DNA of 64,000 bases from Candidatus Yanofskybacteria bacterium (GCA_003151795.1 PLYL01000005.1:1011-65010), one strand, 5' to 3'; positions 13,338-48,476 are shown, numbered from the stretch's first letter. Made by a program: numbers and translations. The notes: generated from the letters alone by a model not told the origin.

Positions 13338-13490
13338 CTATCCACATCTCATTGACTTTTAATGCGACGAGGCGTATGCTGGAGATGTAGAGGTTGTATC
13401 GTAGCTTGGTAGCAGGAATGCTAATTAAATACGTTAACCCCACCGCCCTCTGGCTTGCCGGATGGCGGTTTTAGTTTTATCATTTATTTG

Positions 13491-14138
13491 ATGAAAAGAG
13501 CTTTTGTTTTTATTGATGGTAGCAATCTTTACTACCGGCTTAAGGGTATCGCCGGATTTTATATGAAAGAAAATGGCAAGGATTACAGTATGAGCCATTT
13601 TAAGTTTAAGGAGTTTTGTAAATGGCTGGTAGGCGACAACGGTCTACAAGAAATTCATTATTATATTGGTCAAATTAAGCGACCCAATCCTCAATCAAAA
13701 AATTCTCAAAAAGCAGAACAGATGTATTCGAGTCAGCAAAGACTGGCAGGCTACTTACAGGCTCAAGGGATAGTTATGAAGTTTGGGAAGCTTATGAGAG
13801 ATCCGAGCCGTCCTGATGTGTACCATGAAAAAGGTGTTGATGTGCAAATTGCTGTAGAAATGATTAGATTCGCTCGTCAGGATAAGTATGACATTGCTTA
13901 TTTGATAAGTTCAGATACTGATTTAGTTCCAGCAGTTCAAGAAGTGAAGGACCTTGGAAAAGAAGTTGTCTATGCTGGAGTTAAATTAATTCCTATAGGA
14001 GATACTAATAATACAAAAAAGAAAAACGTATTTGGCATTTCCTATGGCTTACTCGGTACCGCAAGCGATGTTAAGTTAATTGAAAAAGAGGATATAAAAC
14101 CATTTTTAGTATTACGAGAGGATACTCAAGTTAAGTAG
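13491..14138 (+). CDS. NYN/LabA-like (PIN-fold) domain protein, AT-rich
   Basis: FIDGSNLYY, KGVDVQIAVEM and SSDTDLVPAV are NYN-domain acidic catalytic motifs. About 37% GC. Start set at MKRAFVF. Confidence 0.65.
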   Translation: MKRAFVFIDGSNLYYRLKGIAGFYMKENGKDYSMSHFKFKEFCKWLVGDNGLQEIHYYIGQIKRPNPQSKNSQKAEQMYSSQQRLAGYLQAQGIVMKFGKLMRDPSRPDVYHEKGVDVQIAVEMIRFARQDKYDIAYLISSDTDLVPAVQEVKDLGKEVVYAGVKLIPIGDTNNTKKKNVFGISYGLLGTASDVKLIEKEDIKPFLVLREDTQVK

Positions 14139-14160
14139 GACGCTTATATATTATTAAGGT

Positions 14161-14430
14161 TTGATTTACTTTATCTACCTTCTCAAATGCGCGGACGGCA
14201 GTCTCTACTGCGGGATTACGACTGATGTGGAGCGGAGGCTTAGAGAGCATCGGGCGGGGAAGGGCGGGAATTACACGCGAGCGCATAGGGCGGTAAAGAT
14301 GGTATATATAGAGAGGTGCAAGGATAGGTCGAGCGCTTTGAAGCGGGAAGCGGAGATTAAACGGCTATTACGAGCGGATAAACTCAAGTTAATTAAACAC
14401 CCGCCAAAATTTTATGGAAACAAAACTTAG
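14161..14430 (+). CDS. GIY-YIG nuclease superfamily protein (YhbQ/UPF0213-like)
   Basis: IYLLKCADGSLYCGITTDVERRLREH are GIY-YIG core motifs (GIY ... YIG-like, R, E). Confidence 0.75.
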   Translation: MIYFIYLLKCADGSLYCGITTDVERRLREHRAGKGGNYTRAHRAVKMVYIERCKDRSSALKREAEIKRLLRADKLKLIKHPPKFYGNKT

Positions 14431-15043
14431 GCGGGCAAGCACAAAACATCTCGCGAAGGTTGACCCGATTTTGAAAGAGCTGATGAAGCGGGTGAAACCA
14501 CAGATCTATCCATTGCAGGATAATTATTTTCGTTCCTTGGTGCGGGCTATCGCGAATCAGCAGTTGTCGGGCAAAGCGGCCCAGACGATTCTCAATCGGA
14601 TGGTGGCATTGTTTCCCAGGGGCGAATTTCCGACACCGAAGCAGTATCTGAAAATGCCGGACGGGAAACTTCGTGCGGCGGGGTTTTCATTTTCCAAAAT
14701 CGCCTACACCAAAAATATCGCCCAATTTTTCATCGAGCGCGAGAAAGAGATGCAAAAGATTAACGAACTCACGGACGAAGATATTATTAAACTTCTGACC
14801 GGCGTGAAAGGCGTCGGCGTCTGGACGGCCGAAATGTTTCTGATGTCTTCGCTGGGCCGGGAAGACGTATTCTCATACGGCGATCTCGGCCTGCGAAAAG
14901 GTTTGCAGAAAGTCTACAAGTTTAAAAAAGAGCCGACGCTCAAACAGATGCAGAAAATCGTGGAAGCCTGGAAACCCTACCGGACCCACGGCGCTCGCTA
15001 TATGTGGGCCAGTTTGGCTAAACCCGAACCAAAAAAGAAGTAG
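14414..15043 (+). CDS. DNA-3-methyladenine glycosylase II (AlkA-like, HhH-GPD family)
   Basis: HhH motif LTGVKGVGVWTAEMFLM and the catalytic Asp region GDLGLRKG. Confidence 0.7.
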   Translation: METKLRRASTKHLAKVDPILKELMKRVKPQIYPLQDNYFRSLVRAIANQQLSGKAAQTILNRMVALFPRGEFPTPKQYLKMPDGKLRAAGFSFSKIAYTKNIAQFFIEREKEMQKINELTDEDIIKLLTGVKGVGVWTAEMFLMSSLGREDVFSYGDLGLRKGLQKVYKFKKEPTLKQMQKIVEAWKPYRTHGARYMWASLAKPEPKKK

Positions 15044-15090
15044 GCTTAATCCTACTTGTAGGAAATTAGGATATGTGCTAGGATGGGGAT

Positions 15091-15336
15091 ATGAAGAAAT
15101 TCCCCGAACAGGAGTTCTACGGCACCACCACTCTGGGCGAGAAAGGCCAGGTTGTGATTCCCTCGGAAGCTCGAAAAGGCCTGAAAATCCACAAAGGCGA
15201 GAAATTGCTGGTTTTTAGCATGGGCGACGACATTGTCATTCTTTCAAAGCTTTCCAACTTGAAACAATTCGCCTTTCATTTGGCCAAGAGATTGGATTCC
15301 ATCAAGAAAATTATTAAAAAAACAAACAAAAAATAA
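15091..15336 (+). CDS. AbrB/MazE/SpoVT-type swapped-hairpin DNA-binding protein
   Basis: GEKGQVVIPSEARKGLKIHKGEKLLV is the SpoVT/AbrB domain pattern. Confidence 0.5.
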   Translation: MKKFPEQEFYGTTTLGEKGQVVIPSEARKGLKIHKGEKLLVFSMGDDIVILSKLSNLKQFAFHLAKRLDSIKKIIKKTNKK

Positions 15337-16871
15337 TGTTTACATTTTTTAAAACAAAATTAGGAATGGTCGTCGGCGCAGTGTTGCTCGTGGTTGTAAT
15401 TTTGATTGTCCGGCGCGTGACGGCCAAGCCCGCGTCAGTGGCCACGATTGTTGCCCAGACGGGCGATATCAAAGAACAAATCAGCGTGACTGGCAGCGTA
15501 ACTTCGTCCGATACGGCAAATTTATCATTCCAGAGTTCGGGCCGATTGGCACGGGTCAATGTTGTCGTCGGTTCGCGCGTCGGCGCGGGCCAAGTTTTGA
15601 TGGCCCTCGATACGACGCAACTTCAGGCTCAACGCCAGCTCCAGCAAGCTCAAATCAACGGCGCCCAAGCCAAACTCAATCAAGTCCAAGCTGGCGCGAC
15701 GCCCGCCGATATTGCTGTCGCTCAATCCGCGGTCGCGACCGCCCAGAACACGCTTATTCAGATCCAGACCAAAACCGCCCTCGACGCGTCCCGTAAAGAT
15801 ATTAATGCCGTCACCGACGCGCTTCAGCTCATCTCTAATATTGATGACCCATTATATCTCGTAAAACAAGACATGAATACGGGTGCACTCAATAGCCCGA
15901 TTGGTCAGGTGAGATTGAGTATCTATGGTAATTCGAGTTCTAACTCAACGACAACGGGAGGCTTGCTCGGTCAACTCAATGGAAGTCAAATCGATACGAC
16001 CGATAGCATTCTTGAAAAAACAAAAGTTGATCTGGTTACTACTCAAGGGATTCTTGATATTGCCTATGCTGATTTGGTGCAAGAAAGCGCAAGTGCCACG
16101 ACGACTTCGCTCGTTACCACGGCTCGCTCAAATGTATTAACCGCTCTCAATGACATCGATACTCAAATTCAGGCGCTCATCACGGCCGAGAATAATGTTC
16201 AAAACGCTCAAGCGGCGCTGACGCTGAAACAATCGCCGCCCACGGCTAACGATATTGCCATTGCCCAAGCTTCGCTCGATGAAGCGACTGCTAATCTCGC
16301 GATTATCAACGCTCAAATTAATCAAGACGTTATTGTCGCGCCCGTCGCGGGCGTGATTACGGCAGTTAATTTTAAAGTTGGTGAAACCGTGAACGCGAGC
16401 GCGATTGCTACGACGCTTCTCAATGATTCTCATTTTGAAATCGATTCTAACGTGCCCGAAACTGATATCGGCAAAGTCGCGGTTGGCGATCCGGTTTCAC
16501 TGACTCTCGACGCGTTTCAGGGCGAGACATTCACGGGCAAAGTCAGCCAGATTGATCCGGCCCAGCAGATTATCGACGGCGTAGTGGTCTTTAAGGTTAC
16601 GGTTTTGTTTGATAAAGCCGACCCGCGTCTGAAGAGCGGACTCACCGCCAACTTGAGCATTCAAACGGCCGAGAAAGACGGCGTGGTGGTCTTGCCCCAG
16701 GTCGCGATTCTCGAAAACGATTCAGGGACCTTTGTGGTCAAAGTCGTGAAAGGCGTCGCCACTCAAACGCCGATTACTATCGGTTTGCGCGCTTCGGACG
16801 GAAGCGTTGAAATTACGTCGGGCGTCCAAGCTGGCGATACTGTCCAAAACATCGGCCTGAAGAAAAACTAA
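15336..16871 (+). CDS. HlyD/MacA-family periplasmic adaptor (membrane fusion) protein with long coiled coil
   Basis: N-terminal TM, biotinyl/lipoyl-like hairpin (VTGSV...GQVLMALD), an extended Q/A-rich coiled coil and a C-terminal beta-barrel (VPETDIGKVAVGDPVSLTLDAF). Confidence 0.7.
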   Translation: MFTFFKTKLGMVVGAVLLVVVILIVRRVTAKPASVATIVAQTGDIKEQISVTGSVTSSDTANLSFQSSGRLARVNVVVGSRVGAGQVLMALDTTQLQAQRQLQQAQINGAQAKLNQVQAGATPADIAVAQSAVATAQNTLIQIQTKTALDASRKDINAVTDALQLISNIDDPLYLVKQDMNTGALNSPIGQVRLSIYGNSSSNSTTTGGLLGQLNGSQIDTTDSILEKTKVDLVTTQGILDIAYADLVQESASATTTSLVTTARSNVLTALNDIDTQIQALITAENNVQNAQAALTLKQSPPTANDIAIAQASLDEATANLAIINAQINQDVIVAPVAGVITAVNFKVGETVNASAIATTLLNDSHFEIDSNVPETDIGKVAVGDPVSLTLDAFQGETFTGKVSQIDPAQQIIDGVVVFKVTVLFDKADPRLKSGLTANLSIQTAEKDGVVVLPQVAILENDSGTFVVKVVKGVATQTPITIGLRASDGSVEITSGVQAGDTVQNIGLKKN

Positions 16872-16882
16872 CGCATCCCGAG

Positions 16883-17590
16883 ATGATTGATTTAAGTCAC
16901 ATCCAAAAAAAATACGATGACGAAGCATCGGCGACGTTAGCCCTTGACGATGTTTCATTCAAAATCGATCCGGGCGAATTCGTGGCCATCATGGGCCCGT
17001 CCGGTTCCGGCAAGTCCACCTTGCTCCATATTTTGAGTTTCATGGATCGACCCACGGCCGGTGCGTACACCTTTTACGGCAAGGACATGAGCGACTTGAG
17101 CGATGCGGAACTCGCGTCTATCAGAAACAAGGATATGGGTTTTGTGTTCCAGTCGTTTAATCTTTTGGCCCGTCAGAGCGTCTATGACAATGTCGAAATT
17201 CCGCTCATGTATTCCGATATCAAAATTGCCGACCGCAAGAAACTCGTCGAAGACGCCGTCAAGGCGGTGGGCTTATCGGAAAAACTGCACGTCGAAGCGG
17301 GCAAGCTTTCCGGCGGCCAAAAACAGCGCGTCGCTATCGCCCGCGCCTTGGTTTGTAATCCGCGGGTGATTTTTGCCGACGAGCCGACGGGAAATTTGGA
17401 TTCCAAATCCGGCGGCCAAGTCATGAATATTCTCGAGGACCTGCACGCCAAAGGCCATACCATCGTCTTAGTTACCCACGAGACGTACACCGCCGGCTAC
17501 GCCAATCGTTTGATTAGAATTAAAGACGGCAACGTGGAATTTGACGGTCCGACCGAGAAGAGCCACGAACACGGTACGTTCGTTAAATAA
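16883..17590 (+). CDS. ABC transporter ATP-binding protein (MacB/LolD-type)
   Basis: Walker [10 protein letters not shown], signature [15 protein letters not shown], Walker [12 protein letters not shown]. Confidence 0.85.
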
Positions 17591-17595
17591 AATAT

Positions 17596-18843
17596 ATGCA
17601 ACTTTCCGATACTATTAAAACCTCGCTCAAGGGCCTCCGCCAATCCAAGACGCGGACGGCCTTGACCATGCTCGGAATTATTATCGGCATCGCGTCGGTG
17701 ATTTTGCTCATGTCGATTGGTCAGTCGGCTCAAGATTATATTTTGGGCCAAGTGCAGGGGATTGGTTCGAACCTTATCTTTGTCATCCCGGGTGGCTCCA
17801 ACAAAAGTTCTCGCCTCGCGTCGCCCGCTTCCGTCCAAGGCATTGTCATCAAAACCCTCAATCAAGCCGACCTTGAAGCCCTGGGCCGTGAAGCCTCCAT
17901 CGCGAACGTCGCGCCAGAAGTGCGAGGCCAAGCTCGCGTCGTGTACGGCAGTAATGACGATTCGGTCACGTTTGACGGCACGACGCCGAATTTCTTCTCG
18001 CTTCGAAATTACACGATTGTGGAAGGCTACCAATTTACGCAAGACGACGTGGATTCATTTAATCATGTCGCGGTCCTGGGTTCGGAGCTCGCCAAGACCT
18101 TATTTGAAAATTTCGACCCTATCGGTAAAAGTATCCGTTTGAATAATTTAAATTTCACCGTGGTTGGCGTGCTGGGTCCGAAAGGCGTGGGACCGGGTGG
18201 TATCGACCAAGATAACATCGTCCTGATGCCGGTGTCGGTCGCGCAGAAGCAGTTACTCGGGATTGATTATTACAATACCATCACCGTGCAGGCGGGGGAT
18301 GCGTATGACATTAATTTTACCAAGGCGCGGGTGACGTCGGTGCTTCGCCAAGACCACGGCATTACCGACCCCAACAAAGACGATTTTACAATTGAGACCC
18401 AAGCTGACGCGGAAGCATTGCTCGGTAGTATTACATCCGTATTAACATTGTTCCTGACCGCGATTGCCTGTATCTCGCTCGTCGTCGGCGGTATCGGCAT
18501 TATGAACATCATGCTCGTGTCGGTCGTAGAACGCACCCGAGAGATTGGCTTGCGCAAAGCCGTCGGCGCGACGGACAAAGATATTATTCAGCAATTTCTA
18601 GTGGAAGCTTTGATGCTGACCTTCTTCGGCGGGCTTGTCGGTATTGCCGTCGGCGCGTTGCTCACCGGCCTTATTTATCTCGGGATTGTTAATTTCACGA
18701 CTGTCGCCTGGACGTTCGCCCTACCGATGACCGCGATTTTGCTCGCCACCGGCGTGTCGATTTTTATCGGCATCGTGTTTGGAATTTATCCGGCCCGCCA
18801 AGCCGCCCGCAAAAGTCCGATTGAGGCGTTGCGTTACGAATAA
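17596..18843 (+). CDS. ABC transporter permease, FtsX/MacB family
   Basis: N-terminal TM, a large extracytoplasmic domain, then a C-terminal 3-TM FtsX domain (ERTREIGLRKAVGA motif). Confidence 0.8.
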   Translation: MQLSDTIKTSLKGLRQSKTRTALTMLGIIIGIASVILLMSIGQSAQDYILGQVQGIGSNLIFVIPGGSNKSSRLASPASVQGIVIKTLNQADLEALGREASIANVAPEVRGQARVVYGSNDDSVTFDGTTPNFFSLRNYTIVEGYQFTQDDVDSFNHVAVLGSELAKTLFENFDPIGKSIRLNNLNFTVVGVLGPKGVGPGGIDQDNIVLMPVSVAQKQLLGIDYYNTITVQAGDAYDINFTKARVTSVLRQDHGITDPNKDDFTIETQADAEALLGSITSVLTLFLTAIACISLVVGGIGIMNIMLVSVVERTREIGLRKAVGATDKDIIQQFLVEALMLTFFGGLVGIAVGALLTGLIYLGIVNFTTVAWTFALPMTAILLATGVSIFIGIVFGIYPARQAARKSPIEALRYE

Positions 18844-18941
18844 ATCCGGATAAACTTCTTGTCAGGACTTAGATATTTGTTTAAAATATGTAATATTGGG
18901 GCGGTGTTTTGCGTATACCTAACGCAGTAGAATTATTTAAC

Positions 18942-19475
18942 ATGAAAAAATTCCTCGTATCGGCAATCATTGTCGTAGCTTTTGTGGGCTATTTTTGGTT
19001 CCAGCAACAAAGCCCGCAGGTGGTAGAGATTATTCCAAGCGTCAGCGCGACGCCGACTATAACTCCGCTTCCAACTGCGAATCCGACCGCCCTCCCGACA
19101 ACCAGCGGCATGCCGGTATCGACCGCTTTACCGACTCCAGCGCCAACTCAAAGACCGACCGCGACGCCAACCCCTAAACTGGGCTTATATAAAGACGGCA
19201 CCTATACCAGCCAAGTCGCCGATGCCGGCTATGGCCCCGTCCAGATAAGAGTGACTGTTCAAGGCGGCCAGATGACCAATGTCCAATTCCTGCAATATCC
19301 AACCGATGCCGGGCATAGCCGACAAGTGAGCAGTTATTCGACCCCAATCTTAAGCCAGGAGGCGATTATTGCCCAGAACGCTAATGCTAATGTAGATACC
19401 GTCTCCGGCGCCACCCAAACTTCAGAAGCGTTTATTCAAGCACTCGGCGGACTACTGGCAAGTATTAAAGCGTAA
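18942..19475 (+). CDS. Exported FMN-binding (FMN_bind) domain protein with Pro/Thr-rich linker
   Basis: Signal/TM, PT-rich linker, FMN_bind domain with predicted flavinylation motif DTVSGATQTS. Confidence 0.65.
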   Translation: MKKFLVSAIIVVAFVGYFWFQQQSPQVVEIIPSVSATPTITPLPTANPTALPTTSGMPVSTALPTPAPTQRPTATPTPKLGLYKDGTYTSQVADAGYGPVQIRVTVQGGQMTNVQFLQYPTDAGHSRQVSSYSTPILSQEAIIAQNANANVDTVSGATQTSEAFIQALGGLLASIKA

Positions 19476-19477
19476 TC

Positions 19478-20218
19478 ATGAAGGAGACTCGTATCTTAAT
19501 GGGGATGCCGGTTACTATAGATATTGCCGATATTTCCGCGACGGGCGAGGCCTTGCAAAAGGTCTTTTCCTATTTTGAATACGTTGACCAAAAATTCAGC
19601 ACTTACAAAACCGCCAGCGAAATCAGCCGAATCAATCGCGGGGAACTGGCGCCAGTCGATTATAGCGACGACATGAAAGAAGTTTTTCGGTTGGCCGAAG
19701 AAACCAAACAGCTCACGCGCGAATATTTCAATATCAAAAAGCCCGACGGTTCGTACGACCCGTCAGGTTTGGTGAAAGGCTGGGCGATTTATAGAGCGGC
19801 CGAACTGATTAAAGGTCTGGGCTTTAAAGAATATTACGTCGATGCCGGTGGGGATATCGAAGCCCGAGGCAAGGTTTGGAAAATCGGCATTAAAAATCCG
19901 TTCCAGCAAAAAGAAATCGTCAAGGTATTGTATATTCAAGACCGAGGCGTCGCCACGTCGGGGACTTATATTCGCGGCGACCATATTTACGATCCGACCA
20001 ATAGTGGGACGAATATGGACGAAATCGCGAGCCTGACGATTATCGGGCCCAACGTCTATGAAGCCGACCGGTTCGCGACGGCGGCGTTTGCCATGGGGCA
20101 AGCGGGAATTTATTTTGTTGAAAATTTAGAAGGCTTTGAAGGCTATATGATTGACCAGCACGGCCAAGCCACGATGACCACCGGCTTCGAGGCGTTTACC
20201 AAAGAAGTGCTACAATAA
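19478..20218 (+). CDS. apbE: ApbE-family FAD:protein FMN transferase
   Basis: DPSGLVKGWA, TSGTYIRGDHIYDPTNSG and DRFATAAFAMG are ApbE motifs. Confidence 0.75.
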   Translation: MKETRILMGMPVTIDIADISATGEALQKVFSYFEYVDQKFSTYKTASEISRINRGELAPVDYSDDMKEVFRLAEETKQLTREYFNIKKPDGSYDPSGLVKGWAIYRAAELIKGLGFKEYYVDAGGDIEARGKVWKIGIKNPFQQKEIVKVLYIQDRGVATSGTYIRGDHIYDPTNSGTNMDEIASLTIIGPNVYEADRFATAAFAMGQAGIYFVENLEGFEGYMIDQHGQATMTTGFEAFTKEVLQ

Positions 20219-20222
20219 AATC

Positions 20223-21743
20223 ATGTTTCGATTCATCGACAATCTGCTCAACCGCATCACCATGTACCGCTTGGTGCTGTATTATTTAATTATTTTGTGG
20301 GCGGCGGCTTTTATTTTTTCAATTTTCGGAATTTTAGCATACGAGCCATTTGGCATGGCCATCACGGCGATTATTATTTTATGCGTGTGCTGGCTGGCCA
20401 ATGTCATTCTGGCCGGCGTCTTTGAGGCGCCGGTGAACGTCGAGTCGGTTTATATCACGGCGCTAATTTTAATGCTGATTTTGACGCCGATTAAAGCCGC
20501 CGACCCTTATGGCTACTGGGTCTTTCTCGTGATGGTTTCTTTAGGCGCAATCGCGTCTAAATTCATCTTGGCGATTGGCAAGAAGCACGTCTTCAATCCC
20601 GCCGCTTTCGGGGTGGCCCTAGTCGCTTTCGCCGGCGTCTATTCGGCCAGCTGGTGGCTGGGCACGGCAGTGATGTTGCCGTTTGTCCTGGTGGGCGGAC
20701 TCTTGATTGTGCGGAAGCTTCAGCGGTCGGATTTGGCGTTCAGTTTTATTCTTGCGGCTTTTATATCTATCGCCGTGTCCACGTGGTTGAGGGGATTTGA
20801 TCCGTTCAGCGCGGTTCAGCGCGCGTTTCTACACTCGCCGATATTCTTCTTTGCTTTCGTGATGATTACGGAACCGTTAACCACGCCGCCGACCCGCGCC
20901 CTGCGGATTATCTACGGCTGTTTTGTCGGCGCTTTGTTTTCGCCGGCGATTGGTCTGGCCGGCATTCAATCGACTCCCGAGCTGGCGTTGTTGGTCGGCA
21001 ATGTTTTCTCGTATCTGGCCAGCCCGAAAACCAAGATGATATTAAAGCTGAAAGAAGTGATTCCGACCGGGACCGACTTGTATGATTTTGTCTTTACGCC
21101 CGATAAGAAATTAAAATTTAAAGCCGGGCAATATTTGGAATGGACGCTTGGCCACGATAGCCCCGATTCTCGCGGCAACCGCCGGTATTTTACGATTGCG
21201 TCTGCGCCGTCAGAATCTGATATTCGGATGGGCGTTAAATTTTATCCCAACTCGAGCACCTTCAAGAAAAAATTGGCCGGCCTTAGTGCCGGCGATGTTA
21301 TTGTCGGTTCCCAGCTGGCCGGCGAGTTTACGCTTCCAAAAGATAAAAACAAAAAACTGGTTTTCATCGCCGGCGGAATCGGCGTCACGCCCTTTCGGAG
21401 CATGGTTAAAAATATGCTTGATACAAGGGAACAGCGCGATGTCGTCATGTTTTATTCGGCCCGCACGCCGACCGAGCTGGCCTATCGGGATATTTTTGAC
21501 CAAGCCGTTCGGGAAAAAAGATTAAAAATGGTCTATACTGTCAATGACGCGCCGGCGGGTTGGCGGGGCCTGACCGGCTATATTACCGCCGACATGATTA
21601 TGCGGGAAGCGCCGGACTGCGCTCGGAGATTTTTCTACATCTCCGGGCCGCGGTCGATGGTCGTGATGTTTGAAGATGCCTTGAAAAAGCTCGGCGTGCC
21701 GAAAAACCAGATTAAAACCGACTTCTTCCCCGGCTTCGTATAA
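20223..21743 (+). CDS. Polytopic membrane protein fused to an FNR-like FAD/NAD(P)-binding oxidoreductase domain
   Basis: About 270-aa multi-TM N-terminal half with few His (not heme-like). The C-terminal half has RRYFTIAS (RxYS-type FAD site) and FIAGGIGVTPF (NAD(P) site). Confidence 0.6.
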   Translation: MFRFIDNLLNRITMYRLVLYYLIILWAAAFIFSIFGILAYEPFGMAITAIIILCVCWLANVILAGVFEAPVNVESVYITALILMLILTPIKAADPYGYWVFLVMVSLGAIASKFILAIGKKHVFNPAAFGVALVAFAGVYSASWWLGTAVMLPFVLVGGLLIVRKLQRSDLAFSFILAAFISIAVSTWLRGFDPFSAVQRAFLHSPIFFFAFVMITEPLTTPPTRALRIIYGCFVGALFSPAIGLAGIQSTPELALLVGNVFSYLASPKTKMILKLKEVIPTGTDLYDFVFTPDKKLKFKAGQYLEWTLGHDSPDSRGNRRYFTIASAPSESDIRMGVKFYPNSSTFKKKLAGLSAGDVIVGSQLAGEFTLPKDKNKKLVFIAGGIGVTPFRSMVKNMLDTREQRDVVMFYSARTPTELAYRDIFDQAVREKRLKMVYTVNDAPAGWRGLTGYITADMIMREAPDCARRFFYISGPRSMVVMFEDALKKLGVPKNQIKTDFFPGFV

Positions 21744-21831
21744 CCGCGGCTGAAACGGCCAAAAACATGAAACAAACCGGGTTTTGGTTCGTACTGTACC
21801 CTAAGCCTATAATAGGCTAATATGGATTGTC

Positions 21832-23565
21832 ATGAATAAAATCAAGGCTTTTATCTCCGCCCACAAATTTATCAGCACCCTCATCGCCCTCGTTTTAGTT
21901 ATATTCGTCTATTATAAATACTTCAAAACTTCGGCGATTGTCACCCAATACGCCCTCGCCACGGTTCAACAAGGGACGATTGTGAGTTCTATTTCCGGCA
22001 CGGGCCAAGTTTCCGGTTCTAGCGAAGTGTCCGTCAATCCCAAAGTTTCAGGCACGCTCACCTATGTGGACAGCGCTCTGGAGGGCAAATCGGTCAAAGC
22101 GGGAACCGTCATCGCGACCATTGATTCAACCGATGCCCAAAAAACCTTGCGCGACGCCCAGCTTAATCTTGAAAAACTCCAAGCCACCCAAGTGACCAGC
22201 CAGCCGAAACTGCAAGATTCAATTAATAATGACCAGAACAATCTGGTCAAAAACTATCAAGATGTCTTTGCCGGCGTTTCCGGAGCATTTCTCGATCTTC
22301 CGGGCATCTTCAATGACGCCGACAATGTTTTGTACGCCAATACCTTGAACGGCTCCTGCAAGCCGGATCTTTGTGATTATCAGAATCTGGTTGATTTAAG
22401 CGCCGTAGACAATCTTAATCTGCTTATTACTCAAGCCCAAAGCGATTTTGCCGCCGCGTCCGTTTCTTATACGAAAAATTTTAACGATTACGGCGGAATC
22501 TTATATACCGCGCCTCAAGACCAACTCGATCAGATATTGGCCGAAACGATTGGCTCGACCCAACTTTTATCCCAAAGCATTAAAAGCGAACAAGCCGTCA
22601 TTAATACGGTTATCCAGAATATCCAAACTCAAAATCACGCGACCGTGCCGAGCGCGATTACGGCCCACCAAACCACCTTGGCGTCTGATCTTTCCAAAAT
22701 CAACAACGACCTTTCCTCGCTTCTTAACGTGCAAGGCGTGGTTTTAAGCGACCGCCAAACATTGGCGTCAGACCAGCGCAATCTTGTCTCTGCCCAGCAA
22801 ACCAATCCCCTCGATCTGATTACCCAGCAAAACGCGGTCGCCGATGCCCAGCAAAATCTTTCCTATTATACGGTTCGCGTGCCGATTGACGGCATCGTCG
22901 CCAATATCACGGCTCAACGGGGCGCGAATGCGTCCAGCGGCGGGGCTTTGGCGACGATGGTGTCGCCCCAGCAAATCGCGGACGTAACTCTCAATGAAGT
23001 TGATGTTTCTAAAGTTATGCTTGGCCAGCAGGTCACGCTCACTTTTGACGCTTTGCCCGATTTGACCATGACCGGCAAAGTCATTTCCATCGATACCATC
23101 GGCACGGTCAGCCAAGGCGTCGTTTCCTATGACGTAAAGATTGCTTTTGATATCGCGAACCAAGAGATTAAACCGAGTATGAGCGTCTCGGCGGCGATTA
23201 TCACCCAAGCCAATTCCGACGCCTTGGAAGTCCCGACGAGCGCGGTGAAAATTCAAGGCACGCAATCGTATGTTCAGACGGTGCAACTGCCGGCCACGCT
23301 TATCAGCGCGGGCACCGCGACCGTGGCTTCAACCGTGCTCACGGCCGCGCCTCAAAACCAGATCGTCACGACCGGCATTCAAAGCGATACCATGACCGAA
23401 ATCACCAGCGGTCTTAAAGTCGGCGATATTATCGTCGTCCGAACCATTACCGGCGCCGCTGCTACCACGACTTCCAGCGCCGCCGGCGGTCTGCGCATCC
23501 CTGGCCTCACCGGCGGCACCGGTGGCGGCGCGACCCGGGCGACCACCACCGCCCCAGGAAGATAA
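21832..23565 (+). CDS. HlyD/MacA-family periplasmic adaptor protein (paralog) with Gly/Thr/Ala-rich C-tail
   Basis: Same architecture as 15336..16871. The C-terminus is TTTSSAAGGLRIPGLTGGTGGGATRATTTAPGR. Confidence 0.65.
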   Translation: MNKIKAFISAHKFISTLIALVLVIFVYYKYFKTSAIVTQYALATVQQGTIVSSISGTGQVSGSSEVSVNPKVSGTLTYVDSALEGKSVKAGTVIATIDSTDAQKTLRDAQLNLEKLQATQVTSQPKLQDSINNDQNNLVKNYQDVFAGVSGAFLDLPGIFNDADNVLYANTLNGSCKPDLCDYQNLVDLSAVDNLNLLITQAQSDFAAASVSYTKNFNDYGGILYTAPQDQLDQILAETIGSTQLLSQSIKSEQAVINTVIQNIQTQNHATVPSAITAHQTTLASDLSKINNDLSSLLNVQGVVLSDRQTLASDQRNLVSAQQTNPLDLITQQNAVADAQQNLSYYTVRVPIDGIVANITAQRGANASSGGALATMVSPQQIADVTLNEVDVSKVMLGQQVTLTFDALPDLTMTGKVISIDTIGTVSQGVVSYDVKIAFDIANQEIKPSMSVSAAIITQANSDALEVPTSAVKIQGTQSYVQTVQLPATLISAGTATVASTVLTAAPQNQIVTTGIQSDTMTEITSGLKVGDIIVVRTITGAAATTTSSAAGGLRIPGLTGGTGGGATRATTTAPGR

Positions 23566-23568
23566 TCT

Positions 23569-24282
23569 ATGATTAAATGTACGGATATCGAAAAAATTTA
23601 CCACGATGGCGGCGATCCCACCGTGGCTCTGAAGAATATTTCTTTTACGATTGAGAAAGGCGAGTTCGTGGCCATTATCGGGCCGTCCGGTTCGGGCAAA
23701 TCAACCCTGATGCATATTCTGGGCGCGCTCGATTCTCCGACCAACGGCATTTATGAGCTCGATGGCAAAAACGTTTCAGCGCTGTCGGAAGAACAGCTGG
23801 CCGATATCAGAAAAAAGAAAATAGGATTTGTGTTTCAGTCGTTTAATCTGTTGCCTCGGGCGACAGTGCTGCGCAACGTCGCTCTGCCGCTGGTGTACGC
23901 CGACGTTCCGGAAGAAGAACGCCTGGCACGTGCCCGCCAAGCCTTGTTGAGCGCCGGCATGGATGAATCAAGGTTCGACCATCTTTCCAACCAATTATCG
24001 GGCGGCCAGATGCAAAGAGTCGCCATCGCCCGCGCCCTGGTGAATGACCCGGCCCTGATTTTGGCCGACGAGCCGACCGGAAATTTGGATTCCAGAACCG
24101 GCGAAATTGTGCTCGACACGTTTCAAAGGCTGAACCGGGAACTGGGGCGCACGATTATTTTGATTACGCACGAGCCGTACGTCGCCGAACACGCCGACCG
24201 CATTATCACGGTCAAAGACGGGATGATTACCAGCGACGTCAAAAATTTGCATAAACGAATCATCAATCACCATGACGCTTAA
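23569..24282 (+). CDS. ABC transporter ATP-binding protein (MacB-type, paralog)
   Basis: [34 protein letters not shown]. Confidence 0.85.
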
Positions 24283-25495
24283 AGATTTATTTCAAGAGAC
24301 TTTTTCCGCGATTACGGTCAATAAAGTCCGGTCCGGCTTGACCGTGCTCGGGATTGTCATCGGCATCGCCTCGGTCATCGGTTTGGTCTCCATCGGCCAA
24401 GGCGCCCAAAATAGCATCTCCGCCAGCATCCAATCAATCGGCTCGAATCTGATTATTGTCACGCCGGGCGCCGCGCGCGGGGCGGGCGTGCAGTTCAGCG
24501 CCGGCCGGGGCAGCGCCCAAACGCTGACCCAAGCCGATGCCGACGCGATTAAAGCTACCGTAACTGAAGTCGCGGGCATCGCGCCCGAAGTTTCCCGCCG
24601 CTACCAAGTCATCGCCGGCGGGCTGAATACGAACACGAGCGTCATCGGCACCGTGGCGGATTATACCAATGTCCATAATTTTCAAATGGATGAAGGGTCA
24701 TTCATCACTGACCAGCAGGTCCAAAGCGTCGCCAAAGTGGCCGTGCTCGGCCCGACGACGCGAGACGATTTATTCGGCGTCGGTTCGGAAGCGCTCGGCC
24801 AGAAAATTAAAATCAACAAAATAGAATTTACCGTCATCGGCACGACAATTGCCAAAGGCGGTTCCGGTTTCACGAATCCGGACGACGCAATTTATGTCCC
24901 AATCTCGACCGCCCAGCATTATCTGGCCGGCGGGAATTACGTGACGGGGATTGATTTGTCGGCGGTGAGCCAGCCGGCGATGGTTGACGTCCAAAATCAG
25001 GTTACTAGTTTATTGCTCCAGCGCCATAATATTTCCGATCCGACCCTGGCTGATTTCAGCGTCATGAACCAGAATGACATTACTTCGGCCGCGTCCAGCA
25101 TCACTAACACCTTTACCCTTCTTCTGGCCGCCATCGCCGGTATTTCGCTCGTCGTCGGCGGAATCGGCATCATGAACATGATGCTCACGAGCGTCACCGA
25201 ACGGACGCGTGAAATCGGCTTGCGCAAAGCCATCGGCGCGACGCCGAAAGATATTTCTCTCCAATTTTTAACCGAATCAGTGATGCTGACATTTTTCGGC
25301 GGGGCCATCGGCGTTGCCATCGGCTGGGGTATTTCCCTTCTCGCCGGCCATTTCTTGAGCCTGAATACTTCCGTAACATTATCTTCCGTCGCACTGGCTT
25401 TTGGCGTTTCGGCCGGTATCGGGATTGTTTTCGGTTATTACCCTTCGCGTCGTGCCGCCGGTCTTAATCCCATTGAGGCATTGCGTTACGAATAA
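24272..25495 (+). CDS. ABC transporter permease, FtsX/MacB family (paralog)
   Basis: ERTREIGLRKAIGA motif and 4-TM topology. The ATPase stop overlaps its start. Confidence 0.8.
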   Translation: MTLKDLFQETFSAITVNKVRSGLTVLGIVIGIASVIGLVSIGQGAQNSISASIQSIGSNLIIVTPGAARGAGVQFSAGRGSAQTLTQADADAIKATVTEVAGIAPEVSRRYQVIAGGLNTNTSVIGTVADYTNVHNFQMDEGSFITDQQVQSVAKVAVLGPTTRDDLFGVGSEALGQKIKINKIEFTVIGTTIAKGGSGFTNPDDAIYVPISTAQHYLAGGNYVTGIDLSAVSQPAMVDVQNQVTSLLLQRHNISDPTLADFSVMNQNDITSAASSITNTFTLLLAAIAGISLVVGGIGIMNMMLTSVTERTREIGLRKAIGATPKDISLQFLTESVMLTFFGGAIGVAIGWGISLLAGHFLSLNTSVTLSSVALAFGVSAGIGIVFGYYPSRRAAGLNPIEALRYE

Positions 25496-25632
25496 TCCCG
25501 CACATAACGAGCAGAAGTCTCTGTTGTGGGCGATGGTTAAAGTTTTATAAAATAATTTTTCGGGCACTAGGATATTGGTTCTGGCTATATATGTAGCGAG
25601 ACCAGAAGCCCACTGCTCGTTATGTGCGGGAT
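25496..25632. repeat. IR-element copy 2: perfect 20-bp inverted repeat (ATCCCGCACATAACGAGCAG / CTGCTCGTTATGTGCGGGAT), 97-bp spacer
   Basis: The left arm starts right after the permease stop codon. The right arm ends in the ATGAATAAA start of the next gene. Confidence 0.8.
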
Positions 25633-26041
25633 GAATAAAAACATAGCGATAGTATTGATGGTTGTATTCGCGGGAGCGGGATTTTATGGCGGGATGAAGT
25701 ATCAGCAAGGTCAAACTCCGGATCGCGGTACGGGCACGTTTGCCGGCCGCACGGGCGGGACAGGCCGTGGCGGCGTCGCTTTCAACGGCACCTTCGGGCA
25801 AGTCATCGCCAAGACCGCTACGACCATCACGGTTCAGTTGGCGGACGGCAGTTCGCGTATTGTCTTTATATCCGCGACGACTCCCGTAGCGAAGCAGGCG
25901 TCCGGCACCTTGAATGACGTCGCCGTCGGCACCAATATCGCCGTGACGGGCACGAGCAACAGCGATGGCAGTGTCACCGCGTCTCAAATTCAAATCCGTC
26001 CCGCCGGCACGCCCCGTCCCAGTCCCTCGCCGACGCCGTAA
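25631..26041 (+). CDS. Small secreted Gly/Thr-rich protein (136 aa)
   Basis: Start at MNKNIAIVLMVVFAGAGF (signal/TM), then G/T-rich beta-like sequence and a PSPSPTP tail. Confidence 0.5.
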   Translation: MNKNIAIVLMVVFAGAGFYGGMKYQQGQTPDRGTGTFAGRTGGTGRGGVAFNGTFGQVIAKTATTITVQLADGSSRIVFISATTPVAKQASGTLNDVAVGTNIAVTGTSNSDGSVTASQIQIRPAGTPRPSPSPTP

Positions 26042-26051
26042 TTTTAACCCG

Positions 26052-26105
26052 TTCAAGATCTCGCCCGCTTTGAGCGGTCGTAGACCTTGGGCGAGGAATC
26101 TTGAA
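26052..26105. promoter_or_regulatory. Operator-like nested inverted repeat (ttcaagatctcgccc ... gggcgaggaatcttgaa) abutting the promoter -35
   Basis: 15/17-bp imperfect IR with a 22-nt spacer containing a second small hairpin (ccgctttgagcgg). It ends 6 nt before TTGACT. Confidence 0.45.
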
Positions 26106-26110
26106 TCGGG

Positions 26111-26138
26111 TTGACTTTTTCTTGAGAAGGCCTAGAAT
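26111..26138 (+). promoter_or_regulatory. Sigma70-like promoter TTGACT-N16-TAGAAT
   Basis: -35 at 26111-26116 and -10 at 26133-26138. An AGGAGG SD and an ATG follow 30 nt downstream. Confidence 0.55.
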
Positions 26139-26169
26139 CTAACCCATTGTACTTTAGGAGGATTGAGTC

Positions 26170-26289
26170 ATGGATTGTCCGTATTGTAATGGTTCTGGAA
26201 AGAAAACCTTCTTTGTGTTCTTTGAACTGGACTGTGGTAGATGCAGTGGCACTGGCCAGAAGCTGGACATGACCCCCAGTCAAACGTGA
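26170..26289 (+). CDS. 39-aa zinc-ribbon mini-protein with two CxxCxGxG motifs (MDCPYCNGSGKKTFFVFFELDCGRCSGTGQKLDMTPSQT)
   Basis: Strong SD (aggagg, 8-nt spacing), ATG, and two DnaJ-like CxxCxGxG repeats. Below ORF-track cutoff. It may instead be part of an ncRNA. Confidence 0.35.
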   Translation: MDCPYCNGSGKKTFFVFFELDCGRCSGTGQKLDMTPSQT

Positions 26290-26439
26290 TCCCAATGATC
26301 ACGTGCCGAGCAAGAAAGAAACCCGCGCGGCCGAAAACATCGAGGTTCCGGCGAACCGGAAATCCAGGCTCATCCCGGGTGTCAAAACCGACTCCAAGCA
26401 CAACATGTAGCACTGGCGAGTTCTGTCCAGGGATGAAGT

Positions 26440-26474
26440 GGCGGCGCGTTCAACGCGCCGCCTTTACTTTTTCC
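26440..26474 (+). terminator. GC-clamp hairpin (ggcggcgcg-ttcaa-cgcgccgcc) followed by tttactttttcc
   Basis: Perfect 9-bp all-GC stem with a 5-nt loop and a T-rich tail, 50 nt upstream of the RT start. Confidence 0.6.
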
Positions 26475-26524
26475 TCCCGAGTTTTATGATGCCCCAGGCC
26501 TAAACTTCTTTAAATTACAACAGA

Positions 26525-27844
26525 ATGATTGATTTTGATAATTTTCAGCAAATAATAGATAGAAAATTTTGGAGATGTATTACGAGAGACACCCTATGTC
26601 CAGTTGGGGAGCAGTCTAAAGATAAATTGCTTCGCATCCTCTATGATTCAATTGTGGATAAGACTTATTATCCATCTCCACCCCGAGAGTACCTTGTGAG
26701 CCATAAATCACAGAAAGTAGCCAGAATAGTTCCAGTTTTTGAAATAAAAGATTATTGTCTGTATTATTTTTGTGTAAAGCGACTTGAAGATTTTTTGACT
26801 AAAGAGCGAACCCCTAATACTTTTGGTGGATGGAGATTGAGTAATAATTTTAGTGAATTAGAACGACAAGAATTAGAGCGAAGATATCCTTATGTCGATC
26901 CCGAGTATTTTTCAGAAGGCTCTTTTAATCCATTGGCCTGGGTTAAATTCTGGGGTGAATTTACGGCTTTATTATACTCAACCCTAGAGCGAGAACAGGA
27001 GGGGTTTATTGTTGAGTTTGATATATCTAATTTTTATGATTGCGTAAGACTGGATATTCTAGAGAATAATATTAGGTCAGTATCTCCTGCAGAGTTACAA
27101 TTTGAAGTTAGTTTGCTTATGCATTTTTTAAAATACTGGAATAGGAAATTTAATTCCTATCACCCACAATCTGCAGGGATACCTCAAGACGAATCCCAAG
27201 ATTGTTCTAGAATTTTGGCTAATTTTTATCTCCAGGCCTATGATAAAAAGATCAACAGGTTATGTTCTGGAATGGGAGCTAGATATTTCAGATATGCAGA
27301 TGATCAAGTTATATTTGCAGAGAATAAATTAGTAGCCGGTAGACTCTTGTTTGAGGCGTCAAAAGAGTTATCTAAAATTGGTTTGAACATTAATACCAGT
27401 AAAGTTAAAGAGTTTAGTTCAAAGAAAGACTACGCAAACTTTTGGTCGTTCGACATACATCAAAATTTAGGCAGGAAAGATATAAAAAATGCTTTTGCAA
27501 TCTGGAAGGATAGAAAAGATAAAATAGATGGGTTCCGCAATTACCCATCTATTATTAAAAGATTTATTAGTAACGACCTTTCTGTACTGGATTTAAATGA
27601 GTACAATATGATTATGACTGAAGCTCTGTCTCGTGAGATGTATTCAGTCTATGATTCTCGCCAGCTAAAAAAGATATATTTGAAATTACACGAGGATGAA
27701 AAGAGAAAATTTATTAACGAGCTAAATCAAACGGCAAAAGTTTTTCCTTTTAATAAATTTCATTTTATCCTTAAGAAATTTTTTAGTGAATTTGGCTTTG
27801 ATTGTTCTGATTTAGACTTAAAAATTAATGAATTAAGGCTTTAG
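26525..27844 (+). CDS. Reverse transcriptase (orphan, YADD catalytic motif; retron/DRT/UG-like, not intron-associated)
   Basis: RT motifs PSPPREY..IVPVFEIKD (1/2), FIVEFDISNFYDCV (A/3), GIPQDESQDCSRILANFYL (B'/4), RYFRYADDQVIFAEN (C/5), ELSKIGLNINTSKVKEF (D/E/6-7). About 33% GC island. No maturase X, endonuclease or other fused effector domain. Confidence 0.8.
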   Translation: MIDFDNFQQIIDRKFWRCITRDTLCPVGEQSKDKLLRILYDSIVDKTYYPSPPREYLVSHKSQKVARIVPVFEIKDYCLYYFCVKRLEDFLTKERTPNTFGGWRLSNNFSELERQELERRYPYVDPEYFSEGSFNPLAWVKFWGEFTALLYSTLEREQEGFIVEFDISNFYDCVRLDILENNIRSVSPAELQFEVSLLMHFLKYWNRKFNSYHPQSAGIPQDESQDCSRILANFYLQAYDKKINRLCSGMGARYFRYADDQVIFAENKLVAGRLLFEASKELSKIGLNINTSKVKEFSSKKDYANFWSFDIHQNLGRKDIKNAFAIWKDRKDKIDGFRNYPSIIKRFISNDLSVLDLNEYNMIMTEALSREMYSVYDSRQLKKIYLKLHEDEKRKFINELNQTAKVFPFNKFHFILKKFFSEFGFDCSDLDLKINELRL

Positions 27845-27853
27845 GTATCAAAT

Positions 27854-28468
27854 ATGTTGAAAAACACAATAACTATTTTAATTTTTACTACAATCGTGAT
27901 AGTGTTTTTTATTTATCGAAACGAAGCGAAAGCGCCTAGTGAGATGGTGACACCGAAGGTAAGCCAAGTAATCAATTCAGCAAATACTATTTTTGATAAA
28001 GCGCGGATAACCAAGAAACCGTTTGGGATTTATATCACGCCGAAGAATTCGCCGGTTCAGCCGGAGAAATTTACGGGCTATCATACGGGCGTGGATTTTG
28101 AGACGACCTCGGCGGAGGAAAATATCGATGTGTCGGTGCCGGCATTTTGCGACGGTAAATTATTGTTGAAAGAATATGTGTCCGGCTACGGTGGCGTGGC
28201 GGTGGAGTCTTGCGTGCTCAATAATCAACCTGTAACGATTATCTATGGCCACCTACGGCTTGCCAGCATTACGCCGGCAGTCGGGCAATTATTAAATAAA
28301 GGGGATTTGCTCGGCGTTCTTGGTAAAGGCTATTCCACCGAAACCGACGGTGAGCGCAAACATCTCCACTTTGGTATTCACATCGGTTCCGCCATCAATA
28401 TCCTCGGCTACGTTCAAACCCAATCCGCTCTCTCCGGCTGGCTGGACCCCGTGCAATTTTTGAAATAG
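27854..28468 (+). CDS. M23-family (LytM-type) metallopeptidase with N-terminal TM anchor
   Basis: GYHTGVDFE (HxxxD) and HLHFGIHIG (HxH) are M23 zinc-ligand motifs. It starts 10 nt after the RT stop. Confidence 0.7.
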   Translation: MLKNTITILIFTTIVIVFFIYRNEAKAPSEMVTPKVSQVINSANTIFDKARITKKPFGIYITPKNSPVQPEKFTGYHTGVDFETTSAEENIDVSVPAFCDGKLLLKEYVSGYGGVAVESCVLNNQPVTIIYGHLRLASITPAVGQLLNKGDLLGVLGKGYSTETDGERKHLHFGIHIGSAINILGYVQTQSALSGWLDPVQFLK

Positions 28469-45498: not shown

Positions 45499-45501
45499 TT
45501 T

Positions 45502-47226: not shown

Positions 47227-47263
47227 TCTATTCTGAATTAATAAACCAATTAACAATAATCAC

Positions 47264-47404
47264 ATGCTCCTCACTATCGCATTTGTTCTCATCGCATTAT
47301 GGCTTGTCGGGCTTATCATTTTCCCGGTGCTAGGATTGTTTATCCACGTTCTTCTAATTATTGCCGTCATTATGATTCTCATGCGAGTCATAAAAGGCAA
47401 GTAG
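47264..47404 (+). CDS. lmo0937-family small membrane protein (46 aa)
   Basis: MLLTIAFVLIALWLVGLIIFPVLGLFIHVLLIIAVIMILMRVIKGK matches the twin-helix lmo0937/DUF5670 pattern. Below ORF-track cutoff. Confidence 0.45.
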   Translation: MLLTIAFVLIALWLVGLIIFPVLGLFIHVLLIIAVIMILMRVIKGK

Positions 47405-47420
47405 AACTCGTCTCTTACAA

Positions 47421-48046: not shown

Positions 48047-48117
48047 AGCGGGATACGGGAGTCGAACCCGTCTCTTGAGTTTGGAAAACTCATGTATTAC
48101 CGATATACGAATCCCGC
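48047..48117 (-). tRNA. tRNA-Gly (anticodon TCC)
   Basis: Cloverleaf: acceptor GCGGGAT/ATCCCGC, D-arm GTAT-ATCGGTA-ATAC, anticodon loop TTTCCAA, T-arm CGGG-TTCGACT-CCCG. Confidence 0.8.
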
Positions 48118-48474: not shown

Positions 48475-48476
48475 TG

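Follow-up and report, generated by a model that had tools for sequence, protein, structure and literature searches.

Background

NQR/RNF-like flavinylation-associated systems were defined by Meheust et al. (2021, eLife; PMC8238504) as a PF03116 and a PF00175 domain in one polypeptide, encoded no more than five genes from an FMN_bind (PF04205) or ApbE (PF02424) gene; they were reported from 127 genomes, mainly of the candidate phyla radiation (CPR) and the Actinobacteria, in a census that counted a cluster only if it had a PF03116 match and one of its proteins was predicted to carry a signal peptide. Huang et al. (2024; PMC10979944) modelled the complex of Ktedonobacter with AlphaFold-Multimer, noted that the flavinylation site of RnfD/NqrB has been lost, and proposed that the covalent flavin of the partner protein reaches into the flavin site of the RnfD-like subunit. 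In Rnf and Na+-NQR themselves, RnfD/NqrB holds a covalent flavin mononucleotide (FMN) and a riboflavin and links the outer FMN to the cytoplasmic face, and NqrC/RnfG swings between two sites (PMC12174285). Here we analyze a cluster of three genes, hereafter the trio, that encode an FMN_bind protein, an ApbE-family flavin transferase and a fusion of a membrane domain with an FNR-type reductase domain. It lies at positions 18942 to 21743 of a stretch of 64,000 nucleotides ("the window") from a Candidatus Yanofskybacteria bacterium (GCA_003151795.1 PLYL01000005.1:1011-65010).

It is very likely that the trio belongs to the NQR/RNF-like systems. Its fusion protein has an RnfD/NqrB-like membrane domain (by PF03116, a profile match to 8ahx_D and the top 15 Foldseek matches) and, on the same polypeptide, a C-terminal NqrF-like PF00175 domain; the FMN_bind and ApbE genes are both directly upstream of the fusion gene; the flavinylated threonine of RnfD/NqrB is gone from the membrane domain and a threonine or serine is kept by the partner; and the transferase has the PF02424 fold with the catalytic-core motifs and is predicted to act on Thr158 of the partner. 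As a locus the trio is a typical member that adds nothing to the published description of the class. What this analysis does add is a wider census, and the observation that the ApbE of these clusters universally lacks an export signal although its partner is exported. A preliminary description made from the DNA sequence alone had proposed that an NAD(P)H-fed membrane protein with an FNR domain reduces a flavinylated surface protein; this fits both our evidence and the hypothesis already published for the class (PMC8238504, PMC10979944), and is not new.

Organization of the cluster

The three open reading frames (ORFs) are present where the preliminary description had placed them (Table 1), and the motifs it quoted (DTVSGAT, DPSGLVKGWA, RRYFTIAS and AGGIGVTPF) are all found in the translations. 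The profile searches it had suggested matched FMN_bind, ApbE and NAD_binding_1 (PF00175), with FAD_binding_6 (PF00970) weak. The genes are separated by only 2 nt (FMN_bind/ApbE) and 4 nt (ApbE/fusion). The first is read from an ATG; a TTG at 18909 offers an alternative upstream start, which is unlikely because family members begin with MKK. The promoter-like site in Table 1 agrees at 10 of 12 positions and is tied for best in the region 15000-26200. The total of such sites in that region does not exceed what shuffled sequence would give, and the agreement therefore carries little weight; the predicted site is possibly the trio's own promoter. A scan of the window with Rfam at the gathering threshold found no FMN riboswitch with the trio.

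Table 1. Features of the three-gene cluster, with positions counted from the first nucleotide of the window
Feature	Position	Strand	Evidence or context
Promoter-like site TTGTCA-17-TAAAAT	18859..18887	+	in 98-nt gap 5' of FMN_bind gene
ORF 1, NqrC/RnfG-like FMN_bind partner, 177 aa	18942..19475	+	PF04205, E=2.2e-9
ORF 2, short ApbE-family FAD:protein FMN transferase, 246 aa	19478..20218	+	PF02424, E=8e-38
ORF 3, membrane/FNR fusion protein, 506 aa	20223..21743	+	
RnfD/NqrB-like membrane domain, aa 1-271 of ORF 3	20223..21035	+	PF03116, profile match, Foldseek, topology
Cytoplasmic FNR-type FAD/NAD(P)H domain, aa 272-506 of ORF 3	21036..21743	+	PF00175, NCBIfam, Foldseek

Distribution and gene order

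More than 7,500 homologues of the fusion protein are in the databases, many of them full-length at about 55% identity; those that are named belong to Patescibacteria, Parcubacteria, Taylorbacteria or Chloroflexota. When one genome was scanned for each GTDB species, the fusion turned up in at least 460 species, and the best 80 loci make up our locus set (L001-L080). Most of these are Patescibacteria, and they also include Chloroflexota, Alphaproteobacteria (Mesorhizobium, Kaistia), Actinobacteria (Agreia, Pseudolysinimonas) and Spirochaetota. Cultured orthologs exist in Dictyobacter (L023), Ktedonospora (L036), Mesorhizobium (L032) and Agreia (L076), and complete genomes with the trio include a 0.98-Mb Woesebacteria chromosome (OY970314.1) and those of Dictyobacter aurantiacus, Mesorhizobium and Agreia pratensis. 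The system is thus not "unusual for a small-genome organism", as had been thought in the preliminary description, having been reported mainly in CPR bacteria and Actinobacteria and being found here mostly in Patescibacteria. In the phylogenetic profiling that it had proposed as a check, the order FMN_bind-ApbE-fusion on one strand, usually with overlapping or abutting genes, is seen in 67 of the 77 loci that have enough upstream sequence. The reverse test took the short ApbE as its starting point and used an independent collection of metagenomes (L082-L161); it found an FMN_bind gene directly upstream in 69 of 74 testable loci and the fusion directly downstream in 66 of 72.

Searching with a profile built on the membrane domain gathers 602 clusters at 50% identity (E<=1e-30), mostly of proteins of 490-515 amino acids, so the system is widespread, with hundreds of such clusters in at least five phyla. 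Among the 120 top homologues of the fusion, 29 carry only PF00175 and no PF03116 in precomputed Pfam. The published figure of 127 genomes is therefore likely an undercount of the family, since both a signal peptide and a PF03116 match were required there; the present census of at least 460 species and 602 clusters goes beyond it. Censuses based on Pfam and the names used at NCBI ("ferredoxin-NADP reductase", "glycine betaine catabolism B") overlook many members of the family or give them a wrong label.

The trio contains two subunits homologous to RnfD/NqrB and RnfG/NqrC, and it could on that account be read as the degenerate, functionless remains of a canonical Rnf or Na+-NQR operon. Its ORFs are intact, however, the fusion has 85 invariant positions over 26 sequences at about 55% identity, the three-gene synteny is strict over five phyla and the family fills hundreds of clusters, and the FNR fusion is a derived and conserved architecture. 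These conservation data effectively refute the remnant reading, to which we give practically no credence.

The membrane half of the fusion protein

The fusion has the layout given in the preliminary description, about 270 residues of transmembrane (TM) helices followed by a C-terminal FNR-type domain. The Pfam family NQR2_RnfD_RnfE (PF03116) matches residues 146-264 with 27.8 bits against a gathering cutoff of 27.7, and there are weak NCBIfam matches to rnfD and RsxD. A profile made from residues 1-272 of 18 family members had a sole match among all PDB sequences, the RnfD of Azotobacter vinelandii (8ahx_D, E=7.8e-5); in that alignment the helix with the FNPA motif (query 124-144, with the motif at 124) corresponds to RnfD 121-142, the C-terminal helices (query 154-263) correspond to RnfD 221-330, and the query motif MITEPLTTPPT (residues 214-224) is equivalent to RnfD ATDPVTSP. 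Foldseek returned only FNR-domain matches with a model of the full-length fusion, and residues 1-272 were modelled separately with AlphaFold2 (mean pLDDT 81.5). The top 15 PDB matches of this second model are all RnfD/NqrB proteins (E 6.7e-7 to 4e-4, TM-score normalised to the query 0.54-0.69), and next in rank are urea and Rh channels, which are known distant relatives of NqrB (PMC12174285). The preliminary description had held that an RnfD/NqrB identity of this half would tell against a role in electron transfer. The half is indeed RnfD/NqrB-like, and since RnfD/NqrB is a flavin-bearing electron-transfer subunit this identity instead supports such a role.

The model has 10 TM helices in an N-in/C-in arrangement, the topology of RnfD/NqrB itself (PMC12174285), and with the FNR domain set inside, loop lysines plus arginines across 26 homologues come to 8.2 inside and 1.4 outside; these two observations place the FNR domain in the cytoplasm and the loop at residues 138-151 outside. 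Residues 143-220 of RnfD, the outer loop with the covalently flavinylated threonine, are reduced to about nine residues in the fusion, which agrees with PMC10979944. The short loop that is left contains YSASWW (residues 140-145) in our protein and QSA[S/T/N]WW in the family consensus, with two invariant tryptophans. We considered whether SA[ST]WW might be a vestigial flavinylation site and rejected the idea, as position 143 is also asparagine or alanine in some members.

The fusion family has no conserved cysteine and a single invariant histidine (His122, in the membrane domain), so Fe-S clusters and bis-His haems are unlikely, and Pfam gives no match to Ferric_reduct (PF01794) at E<=0.01. The membrane conduit is, to judge from this residue pattern, probably flavin-only.

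T216, E217 and P218 (a T-[D/E]-P motif) and the preceding F209 are invariant in the family. We take this motif to be the NqrB D346 region, which is implicated in Na+ handling, and outward electron transfer might then be coupled to Na+ or H+ movement in a minimal redox-driven ion pump that energises the membrane of an organism without a respiratory chain. RnfD/NqrB is moreover related to Amt and urea channels and forms one proposed ion path in Rnf/Nqr (PMC12174285). On the other hand, the other candidate ion-coupling subunits (RnfA/E and NqrD/E, with the membrane 2Fe-2S) are absent from the window, and about 70 outer-loop residues are deleted from the RnfD-like domain; we think such a pump unlikely.

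The FNR half of the fusion protein

PF00175 matches residues 381-482 of the fusion (E=4.6e-19), and the FNR motifs RRYFTIAS, AGGIGVTPF and YISGP begin at residues 320, 383 and 472, respectively. The NCBIfam matches of this half are to flavohemoprotein, Fre and NqrF reductase domains, and its Foldseek matches are to NqrF FAD domains, flavohemoglobin reductase modules and cytochrome b5 reductases (E ~1e-16), with the NOX of S. pneumoniae also among them.

FNR-type domains are reversible, and electrons could in principle run inward. A low-potential donor outside the cytosol would feed the tethered flavoprotein, the RnfD-like domain would bring the electrons into the cell, and the FNR domain would reduce NAD(P)+ in the place of RnfC. 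Such a route would follow the order of the Rnf path, from the outer FMN (RnfG) through FMN and riboflavin (RnfD) and RnfC to NAD+ (PMC12174285). The nearest relatives of the FNR half (NqrF, Fre and flavohemoglobin reductase) nevertheless oxidise NAD(P)H, no donor-side gene is conserved near the trio, and reduction of NAD(P)+ requires either a donor below about -320 mV or an input of energy, for which no coupling subunits of the RnfA/E/B type are found in the window. We regard inward flow as improbable.

The FMN_bind partner

The exported FMN_bind protein of the preliminary description is borne out. The partner opens with MKK and a hydrophobic TM helix at about residues 4-20, continues with a Pro/Thr linker at about residues 25-80, and then has the FMN_bind domain at residues 96-168. 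Its flavinylation motif DTVSGAT occupies residues 152-158, and the acceptor Thr158 (codon 19413-19415) lies 19 residues before the C-terminus. The acceptor position is threonine or serine in all 71 family partners and is preceded by glycine in 70 of these. The window contains no second FMN_bind gene, second ApbE gene or further DxxSGAT motif.

The partner is clearly, by its sequence features, an exported protein tethered outside the membrane. The bias of lysine and arginine around the helix favors N-in in 47 proteins and the opposite in 5, giving N-in/C-out. Most partners have an MKK signal-anchor helix (the helix of the window partner may itself score as a signal anchor), those of Actinobacteria carry lipoboxes (LAGC, VTGC), and family members differ in the length of the Pro/Thr/Ser linker, from about 16 residues to 180. 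The topology check thus came out as the preliminary description had expected, with the FNR domain predicted to be cytoplasmic, the FMN_bind domain predicted to be extracytosolic, and the partner not predicted to be a cytoplasmic protein.

A few members of the locus set depart from the usual pattern. The spirochaete partner of L070 (6833-7231) has a cleavable signal, FRRTAAAM...AFA|AP with an AxA site, that is possibly of the twin-arginine (Tat) type; a Tat route would permit the export of a partner already flavinylated in the cytoplasm. L014 has two tandem FMN_bind partner genes 5' of the fusion (6952-7952) and no ApbE was detected there, and in L066 the partner is present and ApbE absent.

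An ApbE without an export signal

The core motifs of the window ApbE are DPSGLVKGWA (at residue 94), DAGGDI (122), ATSGTY (159), HIYDP (169) and EADRFATAAF (195), whose conserved elements (DPSG..KG, GGD, TSG, H..DP and EAD) align with the E. coli ApbE structures and are invariant in the ortholog alignment. Residues 17-70 correspond to residues 34-88 of E. coli ApbE (2o18/4xgw) and residues 78-234 to 147-317, and relative to the E. coli protein the window ApbE is missing about 50 internal residues and the N-terminus with its signal and lipobox; its own N-terminus, MKETRILMGMP, opens straight into the first conserved strand. A signal peptide, lipobox or hydrophobic N-terminus is likewise absent from every other ApbE of the set (67 of 67 from genome loci and 77 of 77 from full-length ORFs of metagenomes, 144 of 144 in all), with each ORF taken at its maximal length, starting at the earliest start codon that follows a stop. 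The highest Kyte-Doolittle 17-residue mean within the first 45 residues of any of these ApbEs is 1.77, and this is due to the first conserved strand. Apparent FMN_bind-ApbE fusions that would export ApbE (L055, L103, L132 and others) were rejected: these long ORFs come from reading through high-GC DNA out of frame, and their extensions are basic and not hydrophobic. The signal-less ApbE of these clusters is discussed in neither PMC8238504 nor PMC10979944, and we found no CPR-specific ApbE work, and no transposon sequencing (Tn-seq) data on the trio genes in Saccharibacteria, in the literature.

Which proteins an ApbE flavinylates is determined by where the enzyme resides, and ApbEs that lack a signal act on cytoplasmic proteins (PMC12052999). 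Flavinylation of the partner outside the cell by this ApbE should therefore not be taken at face value. One way to reconcile the two would be for the FMN_bind domain to stay inside, as part of an internal membrane-bound NAD(P)H:flavoprotein reductase, which would explain why no ApbE of the set carries a signal. The lipoprotein signals of the actinobacterial partners, the cleavable AxA signal of the spirochaete one and the predominance of N-in charge bias all contradict this, as do the extracytosolic position of NqrC/RnfG homologues and the outward-facing covalent-FMN site of RnfD (PMC12174285), and we find a cytoplasm-facing domain very unlikely.

If the partner is exported, several ways out of the conflict are possible. 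ApbE could act in the cytoplasm, flavinylating the C-terminal DxxSGAT of the partner ahead of its Sec export or while that is under way; the genome could encode elsewhere a second ApbE that is exported, in which case the cluster ApbE would have a different role, for instance supplying non-covalent flavin to the RnfD-like domain on its inner side; or ApbE could leave the cell by an unconventional route. A cytoplasmic ApbE that either flavinylates the partner before it crosses the membrane or has such another role is a tentative proposal, which we entertain because the signal is missing throughout, the partner is exported and the three-gene linkage is obligate. Flavinylation followed by export, if true, would break the accepted rule of a single compartment for ApbE and its target; it would need no FAD exporter, and would suit the minimal genomes of CPR bacteria. 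The signal-less ApbE in any case poses a testable question about where and how exported proteins receive covalent flavin.

A proposed electron path

We favor, as the probable mechanism of the whole, a two-subunit, flavin-only transmembrane electron conduit with its own dedicated flavin transferase. By its motifs and its homology to NqrF and Fre, the cytoplasmic FNR domain would take electrons from NAD(P)H onto its FAD. They would then cross the membrane by way of one or more non-covalent flavins in the 10-TM RnfD-like domain, which are expected there because RnfD/NqrB has riboflavin and FMN sites and the family lacks Cys/His ligands; this would be the "riboflavin to FMN" half-path of RnfD run in reverse. 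From there electrons would reach the covalent FMN that ApbE is thought to install on Thr158 of the membrane-tethered partner. The docking site of the partner may be the truncated outer loop, whose two tryptophans are invariant, at the place where RnfD normally bears its own covalent FMN; this step follows the model of Huang et al. (PMC10979944), and the topology of the fusion agrees with it. On its flexible Pro/Thr tether the partner could finally hand electrons to an extracytosolic acceptor, acting as a shuttle by analogy with the swinging NqrC/RnfG.

Several points weigh against this account. Native electron flow through RnfD runs from outside to inside and ends in NAD+ reduction (PMC12174285), so homology does not fix the direction proposed here. 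The PF03116 score barely reaches its threshold, and the sequence similarity to RnfD is mainly in the C-terminal helices. No acceptor gene recurs beside the trio among the flanking ORFs of the 80 loci, the ApbE of the clusters conflicts with the shared-compartment rule as described above, and the literature on the system is bioinformatic only, with no experimental data found for any member.

If the conduit works as proposed, it would be one of the few means by which CPR bacteria could carry out redox chemistry outside the cell, with only flavins and two proteins between NAD(P)H and the surface. To our knowledge CPR/Patescibacteria are without respiratory chains, haem and quinones. Candidate uses are iron reduction, redox exchange with a host cell and defence against oxidants.

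Neighboring genes

The trio is flanked by two operons on its own strand, at 15336-18843 and 21832-25495, each consisting of HlyD, ABC and MacB_PCD+FtsX genes and separated from the trio by gaps of 88-98 nt. As the preliminary description said, the two operons are paralogous, and their divergence is old (51% identity for ABC, 43% for MacB and 24% for HlyD). The MacAB sandwich that it described is a local arrangement: a MacB-type operon lies within 8 kb of the trio in only 14 of the 80 loci. The close same-strand spacing and the absence of any plus-strand terminator-like site after 21743 would suit a functional unit in which the trio assists export by a redox reaction, or in which the ABC systems export ApbE or the flavoprotein, and the 14 loci could be counted in its favor. 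Such an operon is absent from the other 66, however, and where present its distance varies from 744 to 6897 nt and its side and strand vary as well; the promoter-like site stands directly 5' of the trio. MacB-type pumps also act on periplasmic or outer-leaflet substrates and not on folded cytoplasmic proteins, and a unit of this kind seems highly improbable. The second HlyD (in the 21832-25495 operon) has a long C-terminal tail rich in Gly, Ala and Thr. After the second MacB gene, 25622-26041 encodes a small, Gly-rich protein that is exported and matches DUF5666 weakly; similar proteins occur in eight related loci, and this DUF5666-like protein apparently accompanies MacAB-type operons.

Clustering of the flanking ORFs, in which several high-count clusters proved to be antisense ORFs inside the trio, showed a pair of genes for a histidine kinase and an OmpR-type regulator beside the trio in 24 of 80 loci (Mesorhizobium L032, L033, L037, L040 and L043, Kaistia L034 and L055, L014, L045, L070, L073 and others); the only other neighbors to recur are generic ABC ATPases. 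In Mesorhizobium and Kaistia the pair is directly convergent with the fusion gene. This neighbor suggests signal-regulated expression of the trio; the pair is absent from the window. Two loci in which the fusion has no FMN_bind or ApbE neighbors, L060 and L072, have beside it genes for small exported proteins (L060 7002-7490, minus strand; L072 4618-5486, plus strand) that look cupredoxin-like by eye and could be alternative acceptors or partners.

Elsewhere in the window no genes for A, E, B or C subunits of Rnf/Nqr, cytochromes or quinone functions were found, and the scan of 43 ORFs gave no Rnf-Nqr family match of this kind. The window content (a sortase, glycosyltransferases, a T4SS-pilin-domain protein, iPGM, RNase Y and Obg) fits a monoderm CPR-type organism. 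A 919-aa protein with a T4SS_pilin domain (30602-33361, minus strand) and an Ice_binding-like protein, a DUF7507 protein and a sortase encoded one after another (44497-48038, plus strand) are surface gene sets typical of CPR-like monoderms. A 439-aa reverse transcriptase (26525-27844) matches PADLOC RT_UG13b, a defence-associated class of reverse transcriptases, over its full length (E=1e-124); it sits in a GC 0.38 island (26001-28000) and is followed by an M23 peptidase ORF (27854-28468). At 13455-14430 there is an NYN-domain protein (PADLOC HEC-09, 1.8e-17) and then a small ORF judged GIY-YIG-like by eye, with an HhH-GPD glycosylase gene just downstream. The only Rfam matches in the window at the gathering threshold are four tRNA genes, at 48047-48548 (minus strand) and 50739-50810 (plus strand), with no rRNA or riboswitch.

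Comparison with known systems

With Rnf (RnfD, RnfG and RnfC) and Na+-NQR (NqrB, NqrC and NqrF) the trio shares the RnfD/NqrB fold, an anchored FMN_bind subunit with an ApbE motif, and an NqrF-like FAD/NADH domain, and, like the nqr operon of Vibrio (PMC12174285), it includes apbE. It is not a canonical member of either group, since the window has no RnfA/RnfE pair, RnfB/RnfC or NqrA/NqrF and the RnfD FMN loop, of the S-G-A-T type, is deleted; RnfA/E (NqrD/E), RnfB, RnfC, NqrA and Fe-S centres are all missing from the trio. The FNR domain is fused directly to the RnfD-like part, whereas NqrF is a separate protein that contains a 2Fe-2S cluster. The proposed path through the trio is linear and that of Rnf and Na+-NQR is semicircular, and ion pumping by the trio is hypothetical.

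Flavin-based extracellular electron transfer (EET) in Listeria and Gram-positive bacteria (Ndh2, demethylmenaquinone [DMK], EetA/EetB, PplA and FmnB) follows a shared logic, in which electrons from cytoplasmic NADH pass through a membrane conduit to a surface FMN_bind protein flavinylated by ApbE (FmnB). The analogy drawn in the preliminary description holds in this functional sense only: the scanned neighbors of the trio include no Ndh2, quinone or EetA/B functions, and the trio's partner has a single FMN_bind domain that scores 21 bits with the NCBIfam PplA model, whose cutoff is 325. FmnB is exported as a lipoprotein and depends on the export of FAD (PMC9973259), in contrast to the signal-less ApbE of the trio.

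The fusion protein also resembles NOX, the ferric reductases and Fre-MsrQ in having a cytoplasmic FNR-type domain joined to a polytopic, outward-directed electron conduit. In these enzymes that conduit has bis-His haems in a PF01794 domain, whereas the fusion has neither such a domain nor the residues to bind such haems, and is RnfD-like and presumably flavin-based. In its lack of a signal the trio's ApbE is like cytoplasmic ApbEs such as ApbE2 of Klebsiella pneumoniae, which acts on a soluble fumarate reductase (PMC12052999). Those enzymes modify cytoplasmic FMN_bind domains of soluble reductases, whereas the only substrate linked to the trio's ApbE is exported and membrane-anchored or lipidated.

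The NQR/RNF-like systems (PMC8238504, PMC10979944) are by contrast the same as the trio in every architectural respect. Both have a PF03116-PF00175 fusion beside FMN_bind and ApbE genes, and they share the loss of the RnfD/NqrB flavinylation site, the occurrence in CPR bacteria and the proposed one-way transfer of electrons from NAD(P)H to the outside.

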